Virus record (IMG/VR): IMGVR_UViG_3300027779_000014
From: an uncultured virus (IMG/VR IMGVR_UViG_3300027779_000014)
Taxonomy: Duplodnaviria; Heunggongvirae; Uroviricota; Caudoviricetes
Strand: one strand, 5' to 3'
DNA length: 56,189 bases
A program made the position numbers and the translations under genes. Under the pieces are notes generated by a model. That model made no database searches. It saw only the letters and a list, made by a program, of their open reading frames with translations, and had not been told where the DNA came from. This document shows, piece by piece, positions 28,203 to 35,530 of this stretch (its first letter is position 1; every line of letters begins with the position of its first letter).

Positions 28203-29249
28203 TTATTCGGCTTCCAGTACAAGGTAGTCAACATTTGACTTTTCTCTTACTTTCTGGGTCATATTCTTGGAGATTATCTCAGAAAGGTGTTGTTCCCCTT
28301 TCTTGAGCAATTCTGCTGCGGCTTCTTGATTTATTTTTATGTTGTTTGAGAGCCATTGCTTCTCCGATTTGTCCCAGTCACCTGGATTGCTTGATAAATC
28401 GTTTTTGCAAACATCTGATTCGATGCGTGGTTGCTGTTTTTTCCGATAAAATCTTGTTCTTCTTTGAGGAGGGGCGTGCGAAAGTGATCTTTTAACCCTA
28501 TTAGAATGTTTAACATTTCCTTCTAGGATTGATTCACAAAGTTCACACTTGCCTCTACGGGTGCCCATGATTTCAGAATTCCTTTTCCTGATGTGGCAAC
28601 CTTTCTCTTTAGTAACTTTTTTCAAATGCAGTTTTTCGTCATTCAAACGAGCCTTTGCTCTGCGTGTACGAGAAGATTCTAATTTCTTGGACCTTCTCTG
28701 CATAGCATCTACCCAATTATAGGGTACTTGCGGCGTTCTCGTAGAAGTAGCCATGGCTTCCGCTTTGGGCGGGGCTTCGGATTTGACAACCATCGTGGTT
28801 GCTGTGAATCGTACTGGCTTGAATCTTCCATCGAGTTTCCCTTGTTTATTTGTAGGGATCTCTTCGTTCCATTCTACTTTGCATTTTGCCAATTGTATAA
28901 CTTTTTCAGTCACATGACCGTCATTAGATGCGTCATAAAACAAATTCAATGCATAGTTAATTTTTTGTACTAACACATTCGGTGTCAGCATCTTAGCATT
29001 TTTATTCAGTATTACTACATCTTCTTCTTCGGTAGTGAGGTTATCCAAGTATGGCTTTATTATCGAAATCAATATTTTTAGGTAAGATGCTCTTCTTAGA
29101 GCACTTTTGCCTGCACCGGAATTACGCTTACTTATTTTCATAGCGCGTTTCCTTATGGCGGCTTCTCTTTCAGTTAGAGAAGAGATGCGGCCATTTTGGC
29201 TTGCAATTTCGTTCATTATTGGTTCATTATTCGTGCATTTATCTTGCAT
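28203..29249 (-). CDS. basic hypothetical protein (348 aa)
   Basis: Motif start; K/R-rich. Confidence 0.75.
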   Translation of the reverse strand: MQDKCTNNEPIMNEIASQNGRISSLTEREAAIRKRAMKISKRNSGAGKSALRRASYLKILISIIKPYLDNLTTEEEDVVILNKNAKMLTPNVLVQKINYALNLFYDASNDGHVTEKVIQLAKCKVEWNEEIPTNKQGKLDGRFKPVRFTATTMVVKSEAPPKAEAMATSTRTPQVPYNWVDAMQRRSKKLESSRTRRAKARLNDEKLHLKKVTKEKGCHIRKRNSEIMGTRRGKCELCESILEGNVKHSNRVKRSLSHAPPQRRTRFYRKKQQPRIESDVCKNDLSSNPGDWDKSEKQWLSNNIKINQEAAAELLKKGEQHLSEIISKNMTQKVREKSNVDYLVLEAE

Positions 29250-29684
29250 GGTCAGTTACGGGATTTGTTCACTCGCCACCTATCCCGTATCGGTGGGTCA
29301 TTGTGTCTAGTTGCCCCGAAGGGGCGTAAACCTCGTTCATTATTCACTTGGCCATTCTTTTTTCTAAAAACATTTTAAGTTCATTAGATGGTCCCCAACT
29401 TCCTAACACTTGACGAATAGTCAAGGGAAAGTTGTAACCTATGGCGGCTGATAAATCTAGATCCGTAATATTGTAGACTGTTGGTATTCCGGACATGGAA
29501 GCGAACTTGACTTTTATTTCGTCATTTTCCTTCCATGCAGTTCCGTAACCGGTCTTTATTATTAGTTTTCTTTCGTTCATTGGTTCATTATTCGTGCGTT
29601 TATCTTGCATGGTCAGTTACGGGATTTGTTCACTCGCCACCTATCCCGTATCGGTGGGTCATTGTGTCTAGTTGCCCCGAAGGG
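29207..29684. repeat. ~115-bp direct repeat (29207-29323 and 29571-29684) covering leader structure, motif and first codons
   Basis: Near-identical sequence; both genes begin MQDK.TNNEP. Confidence 0.95.
29344..29610 (-). CDS. hypothetical protein
   Basis: Motif-started ORF. Confidence 0.7.
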   Translation of the reverse strand: MQDKRTNNEPMNERKLIIKTGYGTAWKENDEIKVKFASMSGIPTVYNITDLDLSAAIGYNFPLTIRQVLGSWGPSNELKMFLEKRMAK

Positions 29685-29685
29685 C

Positions 29686-31419
29686 TCAACGCTGCTGTTT
29701 TCGAGCAGGCTTGCGTGTTGGTTTTTTGCTTTGCTTGGCTCGGTGATCGTAAGCATCCTTGGTTAGAGGCACTGCTTTTACTCCGATGACTGTTCTGCCA
29801 CCGATTGTCACCATTGCCGGAGTCAATTGAGACCTATTTCTCCCAATTTTTCCGTTTAAGCCGACTTTTTGCTCTCCTTTAGAACCATTGCTCTTTCCAG
29901 ATAGTTGGGCGTTCTCAAAGCCGAAAGGCCAGAATACGCTATTATCCTTTAATTGTTGCAATGCTTTTACAGTGGACTTATCCTTTTTATTTGCTTTATC
30001 GCCTATTTTTAGTAGGTAAGCGATGTTGGATAATACCCCAGTTGGCTCATAGCCGTGTTGGGCTGTCCTAGACTCAGAAGCTAAGATATTCATAATCGAA
30101 GCTGCTTTGCCTTGTCCTAAAACTTGTTGAAAGTAAAGTTCTGCCAACTTGGCTCCCTTCTTAATATCAGATACATCCCGTGGTTCAAGAGTTTTTCGTC
30201 CTCTCTTATCACAAGACTTTTCTGCTTTCGAACCTCTCATGAAGATTGAACTGTGAACTTCTATGCTATAACCTAGTTTTTGTAGAACTTTGGTTTTCAT
30301 TTCTAGCAGTTGAGACACAATTTCCCAATCAAGGAAGCGAGCGTTCTTGCTCGGATTTCGAGCGAGTTTCAGTGTACCCAAGTTCGGGTCATCTCGATCT
30401 ATTCCGTGATTGATTTGTAAATCTTTAAGGTTTCCAGTCTTAGGTAGTATGGTTTGTCCATACGGAGTTGCAAGTCTGATTAGGTTAAACCTACTCAGTG
30501 CGTTGACGCGATATACCAATATGTCTGCGTACTTTTGATTCTCTTGGCTCAGGTATTGATCCAAGTTAATGCCAAGTAATTCTTGTGCAGTTGGGTTTCT
30601 CTCAGTTATACGAGGTACGCCTTTGCCGACTTTGAACATACCAGGGGTATATTGTGGCGTTACATCATAAATAATCATAGACGCGAATTCTTTGTCGTCT
30701 GTTTCTGCGATGTAGCGCACACTTGTGCCCGCTGGTGCTAGTAACTGGAGGTCTTTTACTAATGAATCAGCATCATCTCGGCTGATTAATCCTGATGTTT
30801 TGGCTGTCTTGCCGTCATCAGATAGTAAATTGGACATCAAGGCATGAACGCTAGGATCTATTCCTATATTACCGAATGACATGGAACCTGACAATAAATT
30901 GCCAGCCACCATATTTCGGCCTTCTTGCGTTGTAGCTCCTTGTGTATCTGCTGCCTCTATAAGAGCGTGGGAAACCCACACTTCTTTATTAGGGACATTA
31001 AATGTTCCATTAGGACCTGTTTTCTCAGTTCTTTCATTTTCTTCTAGGTCTGCAAAGACTTGTTTCTTTGATTGTGCGTGCTCTTTCCCATACAATAAAA
31101 TCTCAACTTTAGAATCTCCTATAAAGAAAGTTCCGTCATTTTCTGATTTTGCATGTTCAAAAGATCTTACACACTCGATAAACTGGTCTGTTGCGTCGTT
31201 TTGCTTTGCGTTGTTTTTTATTTCTTGTGAAATAATTTTTAATGTATCTACGATAGGGCTTTTAGCATTCTTTGGCGTTGCATTTGCAATTTGCTCAAAT
31301 TGAGGCAATTTGCTAATAGCAGCCAAATCTGCTTTTAGACCCTTTAGGGTAAATTCAGTCATTATTTCATCTTTTGTCATATCAGCGTAGATTTCTACGC
31401 TTGCATTTTTCATGTGCAT
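29686..31419 (-). CDS. large hypothetical protein (577 aa)
   Basis: ACTTACC start; long ORF with no family I recognise. Confidence 0.85.
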   Translation of the reverse strand: MHMKNASVEIYADMTKDEIMTEFTLKGLKADLAAISKLPQFEQIANATPKNAKSPIVDTLKIISQEIKNNAKQNDATDQFIECVRSFEHAKSENDGTFFIGDSKVEILLYGKEHAQSKKQVFADLEENERTEKTGPNGTFNVPNKEVWVSHALIEAADTQGATTQEGRNMVAGNLLSGSMSFGNIGIDPSVHALMSNLLSDDGKTAKTSGLISRDDADSLVKDLQLLAPAGTSVRYIAETDDKEFASMIIYDVTPQYTPGMFKVGKGVPRITERNPTAQELLGINLDQYLSQENQKYADILVYRVNALSRFNLIRLATPYGQTILPKTGNLKDLQINHGIDRDDPNLGTLKLARNPSKNARFLDWEIVSQLLEMKTKVLQKLGYSIEVHSSIFMRGSKAEKSCDKRGRKTLEPRDVSDIKKGAKLAELYFQQVLGQGKAASIMNILASESRTAQHGYEPTGVLSNIAYLLKIGDKANKKDKSTVKALQQLKDNSVFWPFGFENAQLSGKSNGSKGEQKVGLNGKIGRNRSQLTPAMVTIGGRTVIGVKAVPLTKDAYDHRAKQSKKPTRKPARKQQR

Positions 31420-31660: not shown

Positions 31661-31683
31661 TATGATAAGTATTTATGGTCAGT

Positions 31684-32100
31684 AGTTCCGTTGAGTAGTG
31701 GAAATTGAGCTTATCATTGACGCCGACCTTTTACAGTCGTCACTCAGTCATTTTCAATCTGCAGATTGTCCATGACTTGCCTTTGAATTTTTACGGCTCA
31801 TAGGTAGTAACCGGATTGATGATTTTTAGTCATCTATCCATTTCTACCCCTGTTGCTCTTTCGAGCATTTTGTGGCCTTTCGGCCTAATGGCATCATTTT
31901 ATCCTCTGGTAGAGGACTGGACTCAATTATCGGATTTCCATTCATCCGACCATTATTTATTGTTGTTGCTCTTTCGAGCGTTGCAAGGTTTCGCTTGCTC
32001 CGAACACCTCTGCAGGGTCGGTGTAGTTATGCTGTATCAACACTCCTCGAACTCTGATCGAGGACTTGTCACACACTCTTGGCTGTGTGAGCGTTTTTTA
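31684..32100 (-). ncRNA. putative structured ncRNA (~415 nt)
   Basis: Bounded by motifs; minus-strand GAAA tetraloop hairpins GCTC-GAAA-GAGC (x2) and GGCC-GAAA-GGCC; further stems. Confidence 0.6.
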
Positions 32101-32375
32101 CATGGTAAGTGCAGTTTGCGCGTACTGCTAGACGCATTATTTTTGGTGTTTGGCAATCTAAGTGTTGCCCATACTGTATATTTGCGTTTTAGTCCATATT
32201 ATCGCGGCCTAAATATACCGACCAAATAATAGTCTGCATATTGATGAATCCCTTTTTCTTTTCTTCTGGGTATTCAACCTCAATCATCTGCCTAATTTGC
32301 TTTCTGGAAAAATTTCGCATGGTAAGTGCAGTTTTGCGCGTACTGCTAGACGCATTATTTTTGGTGTTTGGCAAT
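32101..32375. repeat. ~57-bp direct repeat (32101-32157, 32318-32375) with pseudoknot and ACTTACC motif
   Basis: catggtaagtgcagttt(t)gcgcgtactgctagacgcattatttttggtgtttggcaat. Confidence 0.95.
32189..32320 (-). CDS. small hypothetical protein
   Basis: ACTTACC start at 32320. Confidence 0.55.
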   Translation of the reverse strand: MRNFSRKQIRQMIEVEYPEEKKKGFINMQTIIWSVYLGRDNMD

Positions 32376-32510: not shown

Positions 32511-32521
32511 GGTAAGTAAGT

Positions 32522-32848
32522 GTTCCAGGGCAAATTCTTTGGTCTGAAATGAGTGGGGGTCAGCACACTCATTCTCGTTGCCGATCATTACATCTCTGGA
32601 ACGGTAAGTGCCGCCACCTCCAATTAAGGAGGGCGTTAAGCCCGCATTCTCATCTGTCTGGTATAAGAGAGGAGTCCTAGGCGGATTCTGGCGACGGTAA
32701 GTGAGCCTTTTATAGATAATTACCGCGTTCTTGCTCAGGATTCCGCTTGGTAATCATAGACCTCTCATTTGACCGTAGAGAGGCTGGTGAAGGATCCACA
32801 CCCAATTCCCTCTTGCGTTATTAGGAGGGAGGTTTGGTAGATATGGAT
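32522..32848 (-). ncRNA. three motif-delimited small structured RNAs (32522-32602, 32610-32695, 32703-32848)
   Basis: Each begins right after ACTTACC with a paired 5' end (GTTCCAG/CTGGAAC; GTCGCCA/TGGCGGC; ATCCATATC/GGTGTGGAT). Confidence 0.55.
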
Positions 32849-33033
32849 GGTAAGTGCAGTTTGTGGTCATTTTCACTGCGAGACCAGGGTCAACACTGCT
32901 CTTAACTACCGAATTCATCGAGACGGCGCGTGTGCTTGTGTTGAAAATGGGATTTGGTCACTCGCCACCTTATCCCATATCAGGTGGGTCATAGTTCGTA
33001 ATTCAAGAATAAAGAGCTTGTATTTACTGCGGA

Positions 33034-33292: not shown

Positions 33293-33369
33293 TGGCGGGT
33301 CATACAGGGTTCGAACCTGTGGCCTTCCGGTTAAGAGCCGGACGCTCTACCTGACTAAGCTAATGACCC
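33293..33369 (-). tRNA. tRNA-Lys(CTT), CCA encoded
   Basis: GGGTCAT/ATGACCC acceptor stem, TCCGG-CTCTTAA-CCGGA anticodon arm, GGTTCGAACCC T arm, GCCA end. Confidence 0.95.
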
Positions 33370-33374
33370 GTTGT

Positions 33375-34098
33375 TCCCTCTACTGAGGGATAGTCGTATT
33401 ACCTTTTTTTAGAGTGGAAAGGTTCCACTTTGCTTTTTTTTATGTTAAGTACCGGCCTAAGCCGGTTATTTTTTCTAACATATCGCACATTTTTGGTTCA
33501 GCACCGTTATTGAACTTCCTCGAACCCACGCCACCCCGAAGGGTTTCCTAGCGTGAAATTCGCGCAAACATCCCTACCCTCGCCCTAAGCGTTAGGTGTA
33601 GTTCATAGCCCAATTTCTGTTCACCACCTTATCTCAAAGAGAAAGATGGTGTGTTGCATATCTAACGAGAGTAAGCGTCCACTGGAAATCCTGTTATTCA
33701 ACTTGAAGTCACCTTAAGGTAATCCTCTTGTTGCAGGGCCAATGTAGCCGTCAGTCTTTCGATTATTCTCTCCATACCGCTGCTGTTGTGTGATATTTCT
33801 GCATTAAGGTACATCTGCTCTATGATGTACCCCGTGTGACTTACTGTTTCCAGATATACGAGCCTCGGGAAAACTATCCTAAGGTGCATCTCGTATTAGG
33901 CTGGTTTGCTGCCAGCCCGTTTGTCATTTAACTTCTACAGGACAAGAAGACGCTAGTCTTCAAAGCATTTGTGGATCCTGTAGGTTTTCAGCCGGTAGAG
34001 TTTGCATCCCTGGTTTTCTCGACGCTTTGCAGGCATCGCTATTCAGGGAACTCCGTGAAGCCCCTTGAGGCAACCGGCTTGTGAGGATTGTCTCCTCA
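33375..34098 (-). ncRNA. putative large structured ncRNA (~700 nt) upstream of tRNA
   Basis: No credible ORF; dense inverted repeats (ggtacatc/gatgtacc, ctacagga/tcctgtag, agccggt/accggct, tacgag/ctcgta, gaagac/gtcttc, accggc/gccggt). Strand inferred from context. Confidence 0.5.
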
Positions 34099-34579
34099 TT
34101 ACATAGGCCACCGGCCCTCTAGGAGAGGGTCTGCGGCTAATATTTGGTAAGTTTTGGACCTGTTAAGGCCTCTTACATTATATAGGCCACCGGCTCTCTA
34201 GGAGAGAGACAGTTTATACTATACAATATGTATTCTAGTACCTATGCCACCGGCATTCATAAAGAAAGCCCTAAAGAGCAATTCTCAAGCTACTGCTTGG
34301 GATCACTCTGGGGTTTTTTGAGCCAGGAGCATCTGTTCCTAGGAACATTATCCTCTGGCAGATCTGTTCCTAGGAACATAATCTTAATGAGTTGGTGGTA
34401 TAAAGCACTTATTCTAGTACCTATGCCACCGGCATTCATAAAGAAAGCCCTAAAGAGCAATTCTCAAGCTACTGCTTGGATCACTCTGGGGTTTTTTGAG
34501 CCAGGAAGATCGTTCCTGGAACATAATTCTTAATGAGTTGGTGGTATAAAGCACTTATTCTAGTACCTATGCCACCGGC
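34097..34579. repeat. Repeat-rich divergent control region: 2x ~35-bp hairpin repeat and 179/146-bp tandem repeat with TGTTCCTAGGAACA palindromes
   Basis: Units at 34097 and 34177; tandem copies start 34231, 34410, 34556; palindromes 34334-34347 and 34365-34378. Confidence 0.9.
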
Positions 34580-34609: not shown

Positions 34610-35530
34610 ATGAGCGACGCGCTGTCCCTAGGATCTCGGGCTTTCGAGGAATTGTTCTGCGAGTCAGGAGAACCTTCTGGATGTGCCAAGAAAGGAGGGC
34701 AGATAATTTATGAAAATGGGAAATCTGAATGCGCTTTCTGCGGATTAACGACTAAATTCGATTTCGATACATCTCCTACATTCAATAATGATAAAATGGA
34801 AAAGAGGTTCAGTTTAAGCGAAACAGGAGCTAAAAGAGGGAAGAAGCGAGCATTTAACAAATTGTTTGGCGATTCAACATATGTTGCGGCACATGAAGAT
34901 TTTTCAGGAGGCTACAAAGTCACTGACATTGGGCTTGTGAAGAAATTCAAATTGTCTGCTAACGCGGCTGCTGAAACTGAGAGAGTGTTTTATGAGATGC
35001 TGGAGAAGAATTACCAATTAGGAGGCAAGGGGTTGGATGCTGTAGTATATGCTGCTGCATTCCATGGATGTCAATTCGATTACAATTTCGTTCCAATAGA
35101 AAAGATAGTGAGAGACTCTAGTTCTATAAAGAAAGCAAATAGTCTAATCAAAAGAGCTAGGCAAGATGGCATCATTAAACTAGTGCAAAAAGATCCTGTT
35201 GCGATTTTAGAGTCGGCCCTATCAAAGCATGCATCGAGTAATTCTGTTCAAGAATTAGCAATTAAATTCGCAAAGATCTATATTCCTAACTTACGACCAG
35301 ATATTCACGCATCTGGAGCATTATACAAATCTATGAAAATTACGGGAAATAGTTCTGAAAAGAGAATTTCACAGGAAGAAATCGGAAAAAGATTCCATGT
35401 GAGTAGGAAACATGTGGGACAGGGGTATAGAGCAATTAACGAGGCTCTGACGCCTAAATCCAACCCTGGTCATTTGCCAAACATAGGTATTACTGGCGAA
35501 CAGTTGAAACTTTTGAGGGCTTTACGCTAA
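34610..35530 (+). CDS. tfb: TFIIB/TFB-like transcription initiation factor
   Basis: N-terminal Zn ribbon (C...CAFCG), cyclin-like repeats GKGLDAVVYAAAF and RPDIHASGALY, C-terminal ISQEEIGKRFHVS HTH. Confidence 0.75.
   Translation: MSDALSLGSRAFEELFCESGEPSGCAKKGGQIIYENGKSECAFCGLTTKFDFDTSPTFNNDKMEKRFSLSETGAKRGKKRAFNKLFGDSTYVAAHEDFSGGYKVTDIGLVKKFKLSANAAAETERVFYEMLEKNYQLGGKGLDAVVYAAAFHGCQFDYNFVPIEKIVRDSSSIKKANSLIKRARQDGIIKLVQKDPVAILESALSKHASSNSVQELAIKFAKIYIPNLRPDIHASGALYKSMKITGNSSEKRISQEEIGKRFHVSRKHVGQGYRAINEALTPKSNPGHLPNIGITGEQLKLLRALR

Follow-up and report, generated by a model that had tools for sequence, protein, structure and literature searches.

The locus and its virus

The 56,189 bp window (the whole stretch of DNA analysed here, from IMG/VR record IMGVR_UViG_3300027779_000014) was found with Pfam and PHROGs to encode PCNA, DNA methylases, ArdA, glycosyltransferases and a resolvase. 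Its minus strand carries a gene block (340–31426) in which nearly all ORFs begin at ACTGACC^ATG, the caret marking the junction that follows a seven-letter mark, and the marked stretch, a cluster of RNAs included, extends from 340 to 34152. At the head of this one-strand block, which covers ~40 kb in the complete relative G003, lies a 420 nt structured RNA (31684–32103, minus strand; 427 nt with its 3' mark retained), here named RNA-A. Rfam identifies a tRNA-Lys(CTT) gene at 33293–33369 (minus strand), 1.2 kb upstream of RNA-A in the window and in nine homologous loci. A circularly permuted RNase P-like RNA, here named RNA-B (33485–34145, minus strand, 5' end approximate), is 1.4 kb upstream of RNA-A. 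Upstream of RNA-B, GCCGRTGGC repeats and TATA-like words at 34097–34500, also seen in the homologs, make this region a candidate promoter or origin of the block.

The RNA cluster is flanked by two protein-coding genes. A divergent TFIIB-like gene (34610–35530, plus strand), one homolog of which carries PF00382, is transcribed away from the cluster and occupies the same place in L003 and L004. The next ORF downstream of the cluster (29686–31419, minus strand) encodes a conserved 577 aa protein with 10 relatives at 50% clustering.

A 34 nt stretch of the tRNA-Lys gene is an exact match to Poseidoniales-type archaeal genomes; the 13 genomes matched are titled Poseidoniales, Thalassarchaeaceae or unnamed euryarchaea. 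Judged by this tRNA, the virus of the window probably infects marine group II archaea. For the relative G003 the record is a complete viral genome of 128.8 kb, which has terminal repeats and carries a thermosome and a terminase-like gene. RNA-A is encoded by a marine archaeal virus, whose host is probably Poseidoniales, and is a structural, non-coding RNA.

RNA-A is a folded RNA bounded by two marks

An earlier sequence-only reading of this locus had described a ~415 nt RNA between ACTTACC and ACTGACC, opened by a start codon directly followed by a stop. The unit is as described, on the minus strand, with ACTTACC at 32110–32104, ATG at 32103–32101 and TAA at 32100–32098, and with ACTGACC at 31683–31677 as its end, and the distance between the enclosing marks is 420 nt. 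The ACTGACC at the 3' end is the first of two tandem marks (31664–31683), the second being ACTTATC at 31670–31664.

Two copies of a GCTC-GAAA-GAGC hairpin (31979–31968 and 31866–31855) and a single copy of GGCC-GAAA-GGCC (31885–31874) were located where reported. A fourth proposed tetraloop, GCAAGC-GAAA-CCTTGC, is not a GNRA hairpin. Its closing pair would be C.C, so that the element is a 5 bp stem with a CGAAAC hexaloop, and this stem is invariant in 7/7 alignment rows. Counting only loops closed by at least four Watson–Crick pairs, GNRA loops are indeed confined to the minus strand (three, versus none on the plus strand). Shuffled sequences contained a mean of 0.09 such hairpins and none of 500 had three, and the background rate on the minus strand of positions 1–31400 is 0.27 per 420 nt. 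The folding z score is –6.6 for the minus strand and –3.95 for the plus strand. Assignment of RNA-A to the minus strand is based on folding, on these loops and on co-orientation with the tRNA and the ORFs; the contigs from RNA runs described below are strand-blind for RNA-A.

From its 5' end, RNA-A begins with a variable domain whose first hairpin (32069–32090) is present in the minimum free energy structure and has a counterpart in the same place in homolog folds. It is followed by an invariant core (31983–32028) made up of an AACUACA linker, a CCG/CGG helix with an inner hairpin, and the 5 bp stem with the CGAAAC hexaloop. Then come the first GCUC-GAAA-GAGC hairpin (31968–31979), which is of the GGCC-GAGA-GGCC type in the L004 group, a swappable middle module (31886–31955) that folds as a three-way junction, the GGCC-GARA-GGCC hairpin (31874–31885), kept in 9/9 alignment rows, and the second GCUC-GAAA-GAGC hairpin (31855–31866), seen in the sequence. 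A long stem (31802–31851; z = –4.2) has an asymmetric internal loop with GAAA on one side and GGUUA on the other, and a similar stem, matched by eye and not by alignment, is present in homolog folds. The 3' terminal hairpin (31686–31703) is weak on its own (z = +0.8) and its stems vary among homologs, and its loop word, UACUCAA, is found in 7/7 RNAs. The same is true of UGAGUGA (31740–31746), the candidate pseudoknot partner of this loop. As both words are invariant, their pairing comes without covariation.

Rfam contains no family for RNA-A. Over RNA-A there was no match below E 2.5, the tRNA-Lys is the only Rfam family in the window, and at gathering and E-value thresholds the window and five homologs (L003, L004, L058, L065 and L109) returned just tRNAs and weak, unrelated matches. 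Models of the large RNAs GOLLD, ROOL, OLE, raiA and HEARO had no match at gathering or at E ≤ 10 in the window, or at E ≤ 5 in the same five homologs, and the hammerhead, HDV, twister, pistol and hatchet models had none in the window or the homologs scanned. RNA-A is in no tested Rfam family.

A ribozyme, self-cleaving or derived from a group I or II intron, that releases itself or cuts the marks would have the size, multi-domain fold and GNRA loops of RNA-A, and words resembling those of group I introns can be picked out by eye in the window copy. Those words lie in a dispensable module or are missing from homologs, no intron or ribozyme family was detected at the E-value limits given above, and four RNA runs yielded neither splice joints nor circles. 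We regard this explanation as very unlikely. An assignment of RNA-A as a group I intron or group I-like ribozyme, which would call for a conserved P3–P7 core with P, Q, R and S elements, was rejected, as there was no Rfam match and the elements recognised by eye were not kept in homologs.

Homologs share a core and exchange a module

A profile search found RNA-A on at least 10 contigs beyond copies identical to that in the window (L003, L004, L007, L009, L058, L060, L063, L065, L100 and L109). Protein- and pattern-led scans gave at least 138 candidate loci. Only eight RNA-A homologs were among the metagenome pattern loci (at least 118), and the viral pattern loci included three in 14 in one scan and two in 17 in another, all on contigs already known. 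The homologs form approximately three clades when grouped by eye. RNA-A is single-copy in G003 and G002, and the order RNA-B, tRNA-Lys, RNA-A is fixed in all eight loci long enough to tell. Between tRNA-Lys and RNA-A, L058 (1749–1818) and L009 contain a tmRNA-like tRNA mimic with no tag frame; the L058 copy matches RF00023 at E 6e-4 (17 bits; cut-off 47).

Members of the family are 381–593 nt long, fold with z scores of –3.8 to –8.9 (15 shuffles each) and have three to six GNRA hairpins in the sense direction and none in antisense. The surplus of folding and of GNRA loops is thus seen in the window copy and in seven homologs. The core, AACUACACCG...CGGAGCRAGCGAAACCUYG, is kept throughout. For its 12 pairs, 98.8% of cells are paired, compared with 16–44% in slid controls, and two of the 12 show double changes, a count reached by 5/500 shuffles. 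With approximately three clades and a nearly invariant core, covariation is thin.

The middle module is common to the window, L004, L063 and L109, where it shows two double changes. It is absent in L009 and is replaced by other folded inserts in L058/L065, in L003 and in L007, and GGCC-GARA-GGCC hairpins persist where it is missing or swapped. In RNA runs X3, X6 and X7 the module (31889–31954) was also seen, with small indels, on one contig with unrelated flanks, the inner letters of which can pair with one another. The module therefore occurs in another RNA context.

In sum, RNA-A is a folded, virus-specific RNA, present in single copy between two marks, and compensatory changes accompany its conservation. 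Of the earlier description as a tertiary-folded RNA released as its own unit, the folded, non-coding, own-unit part is borne out by conservation, by marks at both ends in 7/7 RNAs and by the RNA-run contigs; tertiary folding we infer.

When a model of the core, R1, was used to search 101 host genomes (a set with no positive-control genome), no match was returned. The best 20 of 53 matching GenBank phage records all matched in the tRNA region. A host origin of RNA-A was rejected after the L004 copy gave two short weak matches in 401 genomes, and the middle module likewise had two short weak matches to host genomes. Searches of the open-access literature returned no account of RNA-A, of the mark or of a viral permuted RNase P RNA.

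The mark is shared by the whole gene block

The pattern ACT[GTA]A[CT]C^RT occurs at 68 minus-strand sites up to position 34200. ATG follows at 61 of these, and 57 open ORFs of at least 30 aa. The ACTTACC^ATG at the start of RNA-A (mark at 32104–32110, minus strand), which had been taken for a local feature, is an instance of this block-wide mark and a putative cut site. In G003, ACTDAMCATG is found 64 times on one strand and five times on the other, compared with 0 in the control, and nearly all marked sites fall at 73.7–114.8 kb, in a block that begins at the RNA cluster. The mark reads ACTGAAC (ACUGAAC in RNA) in G002 and L003. It is not enriched in the two host genomes examined (17 versus 15, and 21 versus 22).

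A TATA-like hexamer is present at –36 to –20 at 2/68 sites and a Shine–Dalgarno-like word at 3/68; the TGA in the mark is the stop codon of the upstream gene in 2/56 cases in the window, 4/53 in G003 and 7/48 in G002; and the bases 5' of the 7-mer show no conservation beyond a slight A/T bias. The genes of G003 that lie outside the block often have GGTGA/GAGG-type words upstream, as judged by eye.

The mark is not restricted to genes. Three small non-coding units of 146, 86 and 85 nt (32848–32703, 32695–32610 and 32602–32518; together 32518–32848, minus strand) have no start codon, and a closing stem opens each of them at the base directly 3' of a mark. Marks also occur in tandem 13 nt apart, flank the closing stems of 85 nt units on both sides and, in L003 and L007, overlap the CCA of a tRNA. 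Because marks bound units that have no start codon, occur in tandem and overlap CCA, a cut site is a better fit than either a promoter or a site of ribosome binding. On this sequence evidence, the mark is most likely a cut site that would free RNA-A and leaderless mRNAs.

In a different account of how the units arise, the mark would act as an initiator that is particular to the virus and recognised by a viral TFB, each unit having its own transcription start with no cutting. The TFIIB-like gene next to the cluster would supply the factor, the C^R junction suits a pyrimidine–purine initiator, and the contig ends near ATGs reported below suit starts equally well. However, an initiator is at odds with the near lack of conservation 5' of the 7-mer, with marks only 13 nt apart or abutting closing stems on both sides of 85 nt units, and with the overlap with tRNA CCA. 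We consider it unlikely.

The start codon of RNA-A is to be seen in the same light. The reading of ATG TAA (32098–32103, minus strand) as a start-stop fails in the homologs, in which the ATG is kept and the immediate stop is not. The frame opened by the first AUG is one codon long in the window and 40, 128, 99, 121, 9 and 9 codons long in six homologs, so that the immediate stop is a feature of 1/7 RNAs. With frames of 1–128 codons, neither the start-stop nor any encoded peptide is conserved. An AUG does stand directly 3' of the mark in all eight RNAs that include the 5' end, as a leaderless AUG UAA that loads, stalls or traps ribosomes would need. Yet an AUG after the mark is the rule throughout the block, the stop at that point is peculiar to the window, and bases 3–5 are predicted to be mostly paired in the seven RNAs folded; ribosome trapping is highly improbable. 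If the cut lies just 3' of the mark, the AUG of RNA-A would belong to the cut signal and the UAA would be incidental.

Transcripts of the region in environmental RNA

Parts of the region were listed from 14 RNA runs, all marine or aquatic, and four runs, X1, X3, X6 and X7 included, were compared, as contigs only and with no DNA-run control. Two X6 contigs cover RNA-A from 31678 to 31835 and from 31848 to 32065, and one X6 contig, at a depth of 2, ends at 31678, inside the 3' mark. Among the matches listed, all eight X1 mRNA contigs stop 14–33 nt inside a marked ATG, though one of these ends (29233) falls on a 106 nt repeat, and of seven X3 mRNA contigs only four end close to a start. Two contigs run through a mark, one from X1 that extends to 29594 and one from X3 that extends to 17650. 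Contig ends near marked ATGs are thus weak support for cutting. In X1 and X3 the bins with the greatest summed contig depth are those of RNA-B and RNA-A, but expression levels cannot be ranked from contigs, and this peak is not counted as evidence. In all four runs, contigs of RNA-B end at 33485/33484.

RNA-B resembles a permuted RNase P RNA

Toward its 3' end, RNA-B contains AGAUAUGC, a hairpin, ACAGAA...GGCUAU, a closed stem and then GAGGAAGUU. We take these segments to be CR-IV, P19, CR-V, P1 and CR-I of RNase P RNA in a rotated order, with CR-IV at ~33663–33656, CR-V and one strand of P4 at 33620–33607, and CR-I and the other strand of P4 at 33521–33509 (all minus strand). The C-domain elements P1, P2, P3, P19 and CR-IV are present in permuted order, with P1 closed by a loop, and the words of CR-I, CR-IV and CR-V are invariant. 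P1 reads CCCUAAC/GAGGG, which resembles the IC3 tetraloop receptor.

In eight related sequences, with the structure named from one row, 99.5% of 207 cells in P1, P2, P4 and P19 pair, with eight double-changed pairs, compared with 32–44% when the strands are slid. P4, the CR-I/CR-V pseudoknot, has 8/8 pairs in 8/8 rows, and four of these are double-changed. RNAalifold, unaided, recovered P4, P19, P1, P3 and P5/P7-like helices, and GGTGAACAGAAA is common to RNA-B and host RNase P genes. The list of C-domain contents used for these labels was checked against PMC4919922.

RNA-B departs from archaeal RNase P RNA (RF00373), with which it shares the CR-I, CR-IV and CR-V words and the paired P1, P2, P4 and P19, in the permuted order, in the replacement of the S-domain by ~410 unrelated nt and in P4. 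A bulged U in P4 is a feature of RNase P RNA and is kept in the host RNase P genes compared, but in the covarying register of RNA-B it is absent and there are two invariant G.U pairs instead. With no canonical S-domain, RNA-B also scores far below the RF00373 cut-off: the best match (9.7 bits, E 0.034; cut-off 84) was obtained with G002 only and covers exactly CR-IV/P19/CR-V. A profile of 30 host RNase P genes reached E 0.7 at best. From its sequence, RNA-B looks derived from RNase P RNA, though it falls outside strict membership, and it is a candidate for the cutter that acts at the marks. As an RNase P it would be expected to cleave in a metal-dependent manner and to leave a 5' phosphate.

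Scanning of block proteins turned up no nuclease family. The 577 aa protein, viewed as a nuclease candidate, belongs to no Pfam or PHROG family and had Atlas matches of ≤0.79; its whole-protein model (pLDDT 71) returned no fold match at E ≤ 0.001, and the best Z, 5.4, involves residues 1–72 only.

RNA-A could also be a second subunit or regulator of RNA-B, the two together cutting at ACUGACC^AUG. The fixed gene order and the ~410 unrelated nt in the place of the S-domain would accord with such a partnership. In 7/7 pairs tested, an invariant AACUA in RNA-A is complementary to UAGUU, an invariant loop of RNA-B, and the ACUACAC linker of RNA-A, as read in the sequence, is one mismatch from the mark consensus. 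However, there are 52 conserved intermolecular helices of at least 4 bp, eight of them of at least 5 bp, and AACUA/UAGUU never covaries. With so many conserved short helices available, this pairing may be due to chance. Moreover, in neither RNA-A nor RNA-B does any aligned segment vary in step with the ACUGAAC mark of L003 and G002, and the best complement to the mark, AUGGUCGG, sits in a stem of the dispensable module. We judge it unlikely that RNA-A is such a partner.

A guide or internal guide sequence for the mark was sought in RNA-A and RNA-B as contiguous pairing of at least 5 nt on MAFFT alignments, and was rejected because nothing covaried with the ACUGAAC viruses. RNase P can be steered to mRNAs by external guide sequences (PMC11143913). 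Such guides, however, base-pair with the target RNA, and here the stretches that follow the AUG vary.

Proposed release and function of RNA-A

We propose that transcription of the block yields long RNAs, which would be cut just 3' of ACUKAYC^RU, freeing leaderless mRNAs and non-coding units, RNA-A included, and that the cutter may be RNA-B, 1.4 kb upstream of RNA-A. That long block transcripts are cut 3' of the mark, giving RNA-A and leaderless mRNAs, we consider likely. Processing of phage polycistronic RNA is familiar from the early RNA of T7, cut by RNase III, and from RegB of T4. The viral block is like these in its long early transcript with inferred cuts at marks between genes. It differs in having a 7 nt mark directly before the AUG at ~60 genes, with no hairpin and no Shine–Dalgarno sequence, and in that non-coding RNAs would be freed too.

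Once freed, RNA-A may act as a scaffold with a tertiary fold, much like GOLLD and ROOL, which form RNA-only homo-oligomeric cages. These RNAs are found near phage tRNA islands and are assembled via kissing loops and A-minor contacts (PMC12286853). RNA-A resembles them in being large, multi-hairpin, virus-encoded and tRNA-adjacent, and in having conserved and variable regions and a variable internal linker. It differs in its shorter length (381–593 nt), in belonging to an archaeal virus, in its variable part, which is an exchangeable module with a fold of its own flanked by repeated GARA hairpins, and in its ends, which are defined by a sequence mark common to the whole block. The fold would be held together by the core, the GARA hairpins and the UGAGU/ACUCA pseudoknot, which would probably also promote self-assembly, and exchangeable folded modules would be displayed between the GARA hairpins. 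Points in favour of a scaffold are the size of RNA-A, the tRNA nearby, the presence of GNRA hairpins and a candidate pseudoknot, and the variable insert. Given release by cutting, a scaffold function has, in our estimate, an even chance of being correct. A released scaffold of the GOLLD/ROOL type is our best explanation of RNA-A overall, put forward tentatively and at somewhat less than an even chance.

The number of GNRA hairpins per RNA (three to six), the exchangeable modules and the position at the head of the block among variable small RNAs, including the tRNA mimic of L058, would also suit a multivalent decoy or sponge that titrates host RNA-binding or defence proteins via its GARA hairpins, A/C-rich linkers and foreign modules. 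However, the invariant core and candidate pseudoknot suggest a defined fold, not beads on a string. A decoy seems to us quite unlikely.

Taking the scaffold together with RNA-B and the mark, the virus may have an RNA-based expression system of its own. A permuted ribozyme derived from RNase P, with a rebuilt specificity domain, would cut a 30–40 kb transcript at the 7 nt mark before each AUG and so yield ~60 leaderless mRNAs and a freed cassette of non-coding RNAs, where RNA-A would have the part of a second subunit or of a modular scaffold whose folded domains are exchangeable. This full picture is doubtful. A large ornate viral RNA beside a tRNA and the processing of polycistronic viral transcripts are both of kinds already known. 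A ribozyme-run expression system, if there is one here, which we hold to be rather improbable, has no described precedent in the literature searched.

With RNA-A, archaeal viruses contribute a family of large structured RNAs to the few large non-coding RNAs that lack a known function. RNA-A has natural plug-in modules and a size suited to direct cryo-EM and probing, and its surroundings outweigh it in importance. If the mark is a cut site and RNA-B the cutter, RNase P would have switched from recognising the shape of tRNA to reading sequence and, if true, this would be a viral route by which early genes reach leaderless translation. Both ideas are open to in vitro work that does not need the host in culture.

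Small repeated elements near the marks

Small duplicated elements that are candidate H-type pseudoknots were seen at 32111–32135, 32328–32353, 29618–29660, 29257–29299 and ~32945–32990 (minus strand). Mostly they end right at a mark, and they may be exonuclease blocks; the folding of the small pseudoknots 5' of marks is not significant (z = –0.8 to –1.4). In L009, L058, L063 and L065, tandem units that open with ATGCGATAC directly after a mark lie between or after the RNAs and, as judged by eye, may fold as pseudoknots that hide their own AUG. The segments 29218–29323 and 29579–29684 are a 106 nt duplication (99% identical), as a result of which two ORFs share an upstream element, a mark and an N-terminus.
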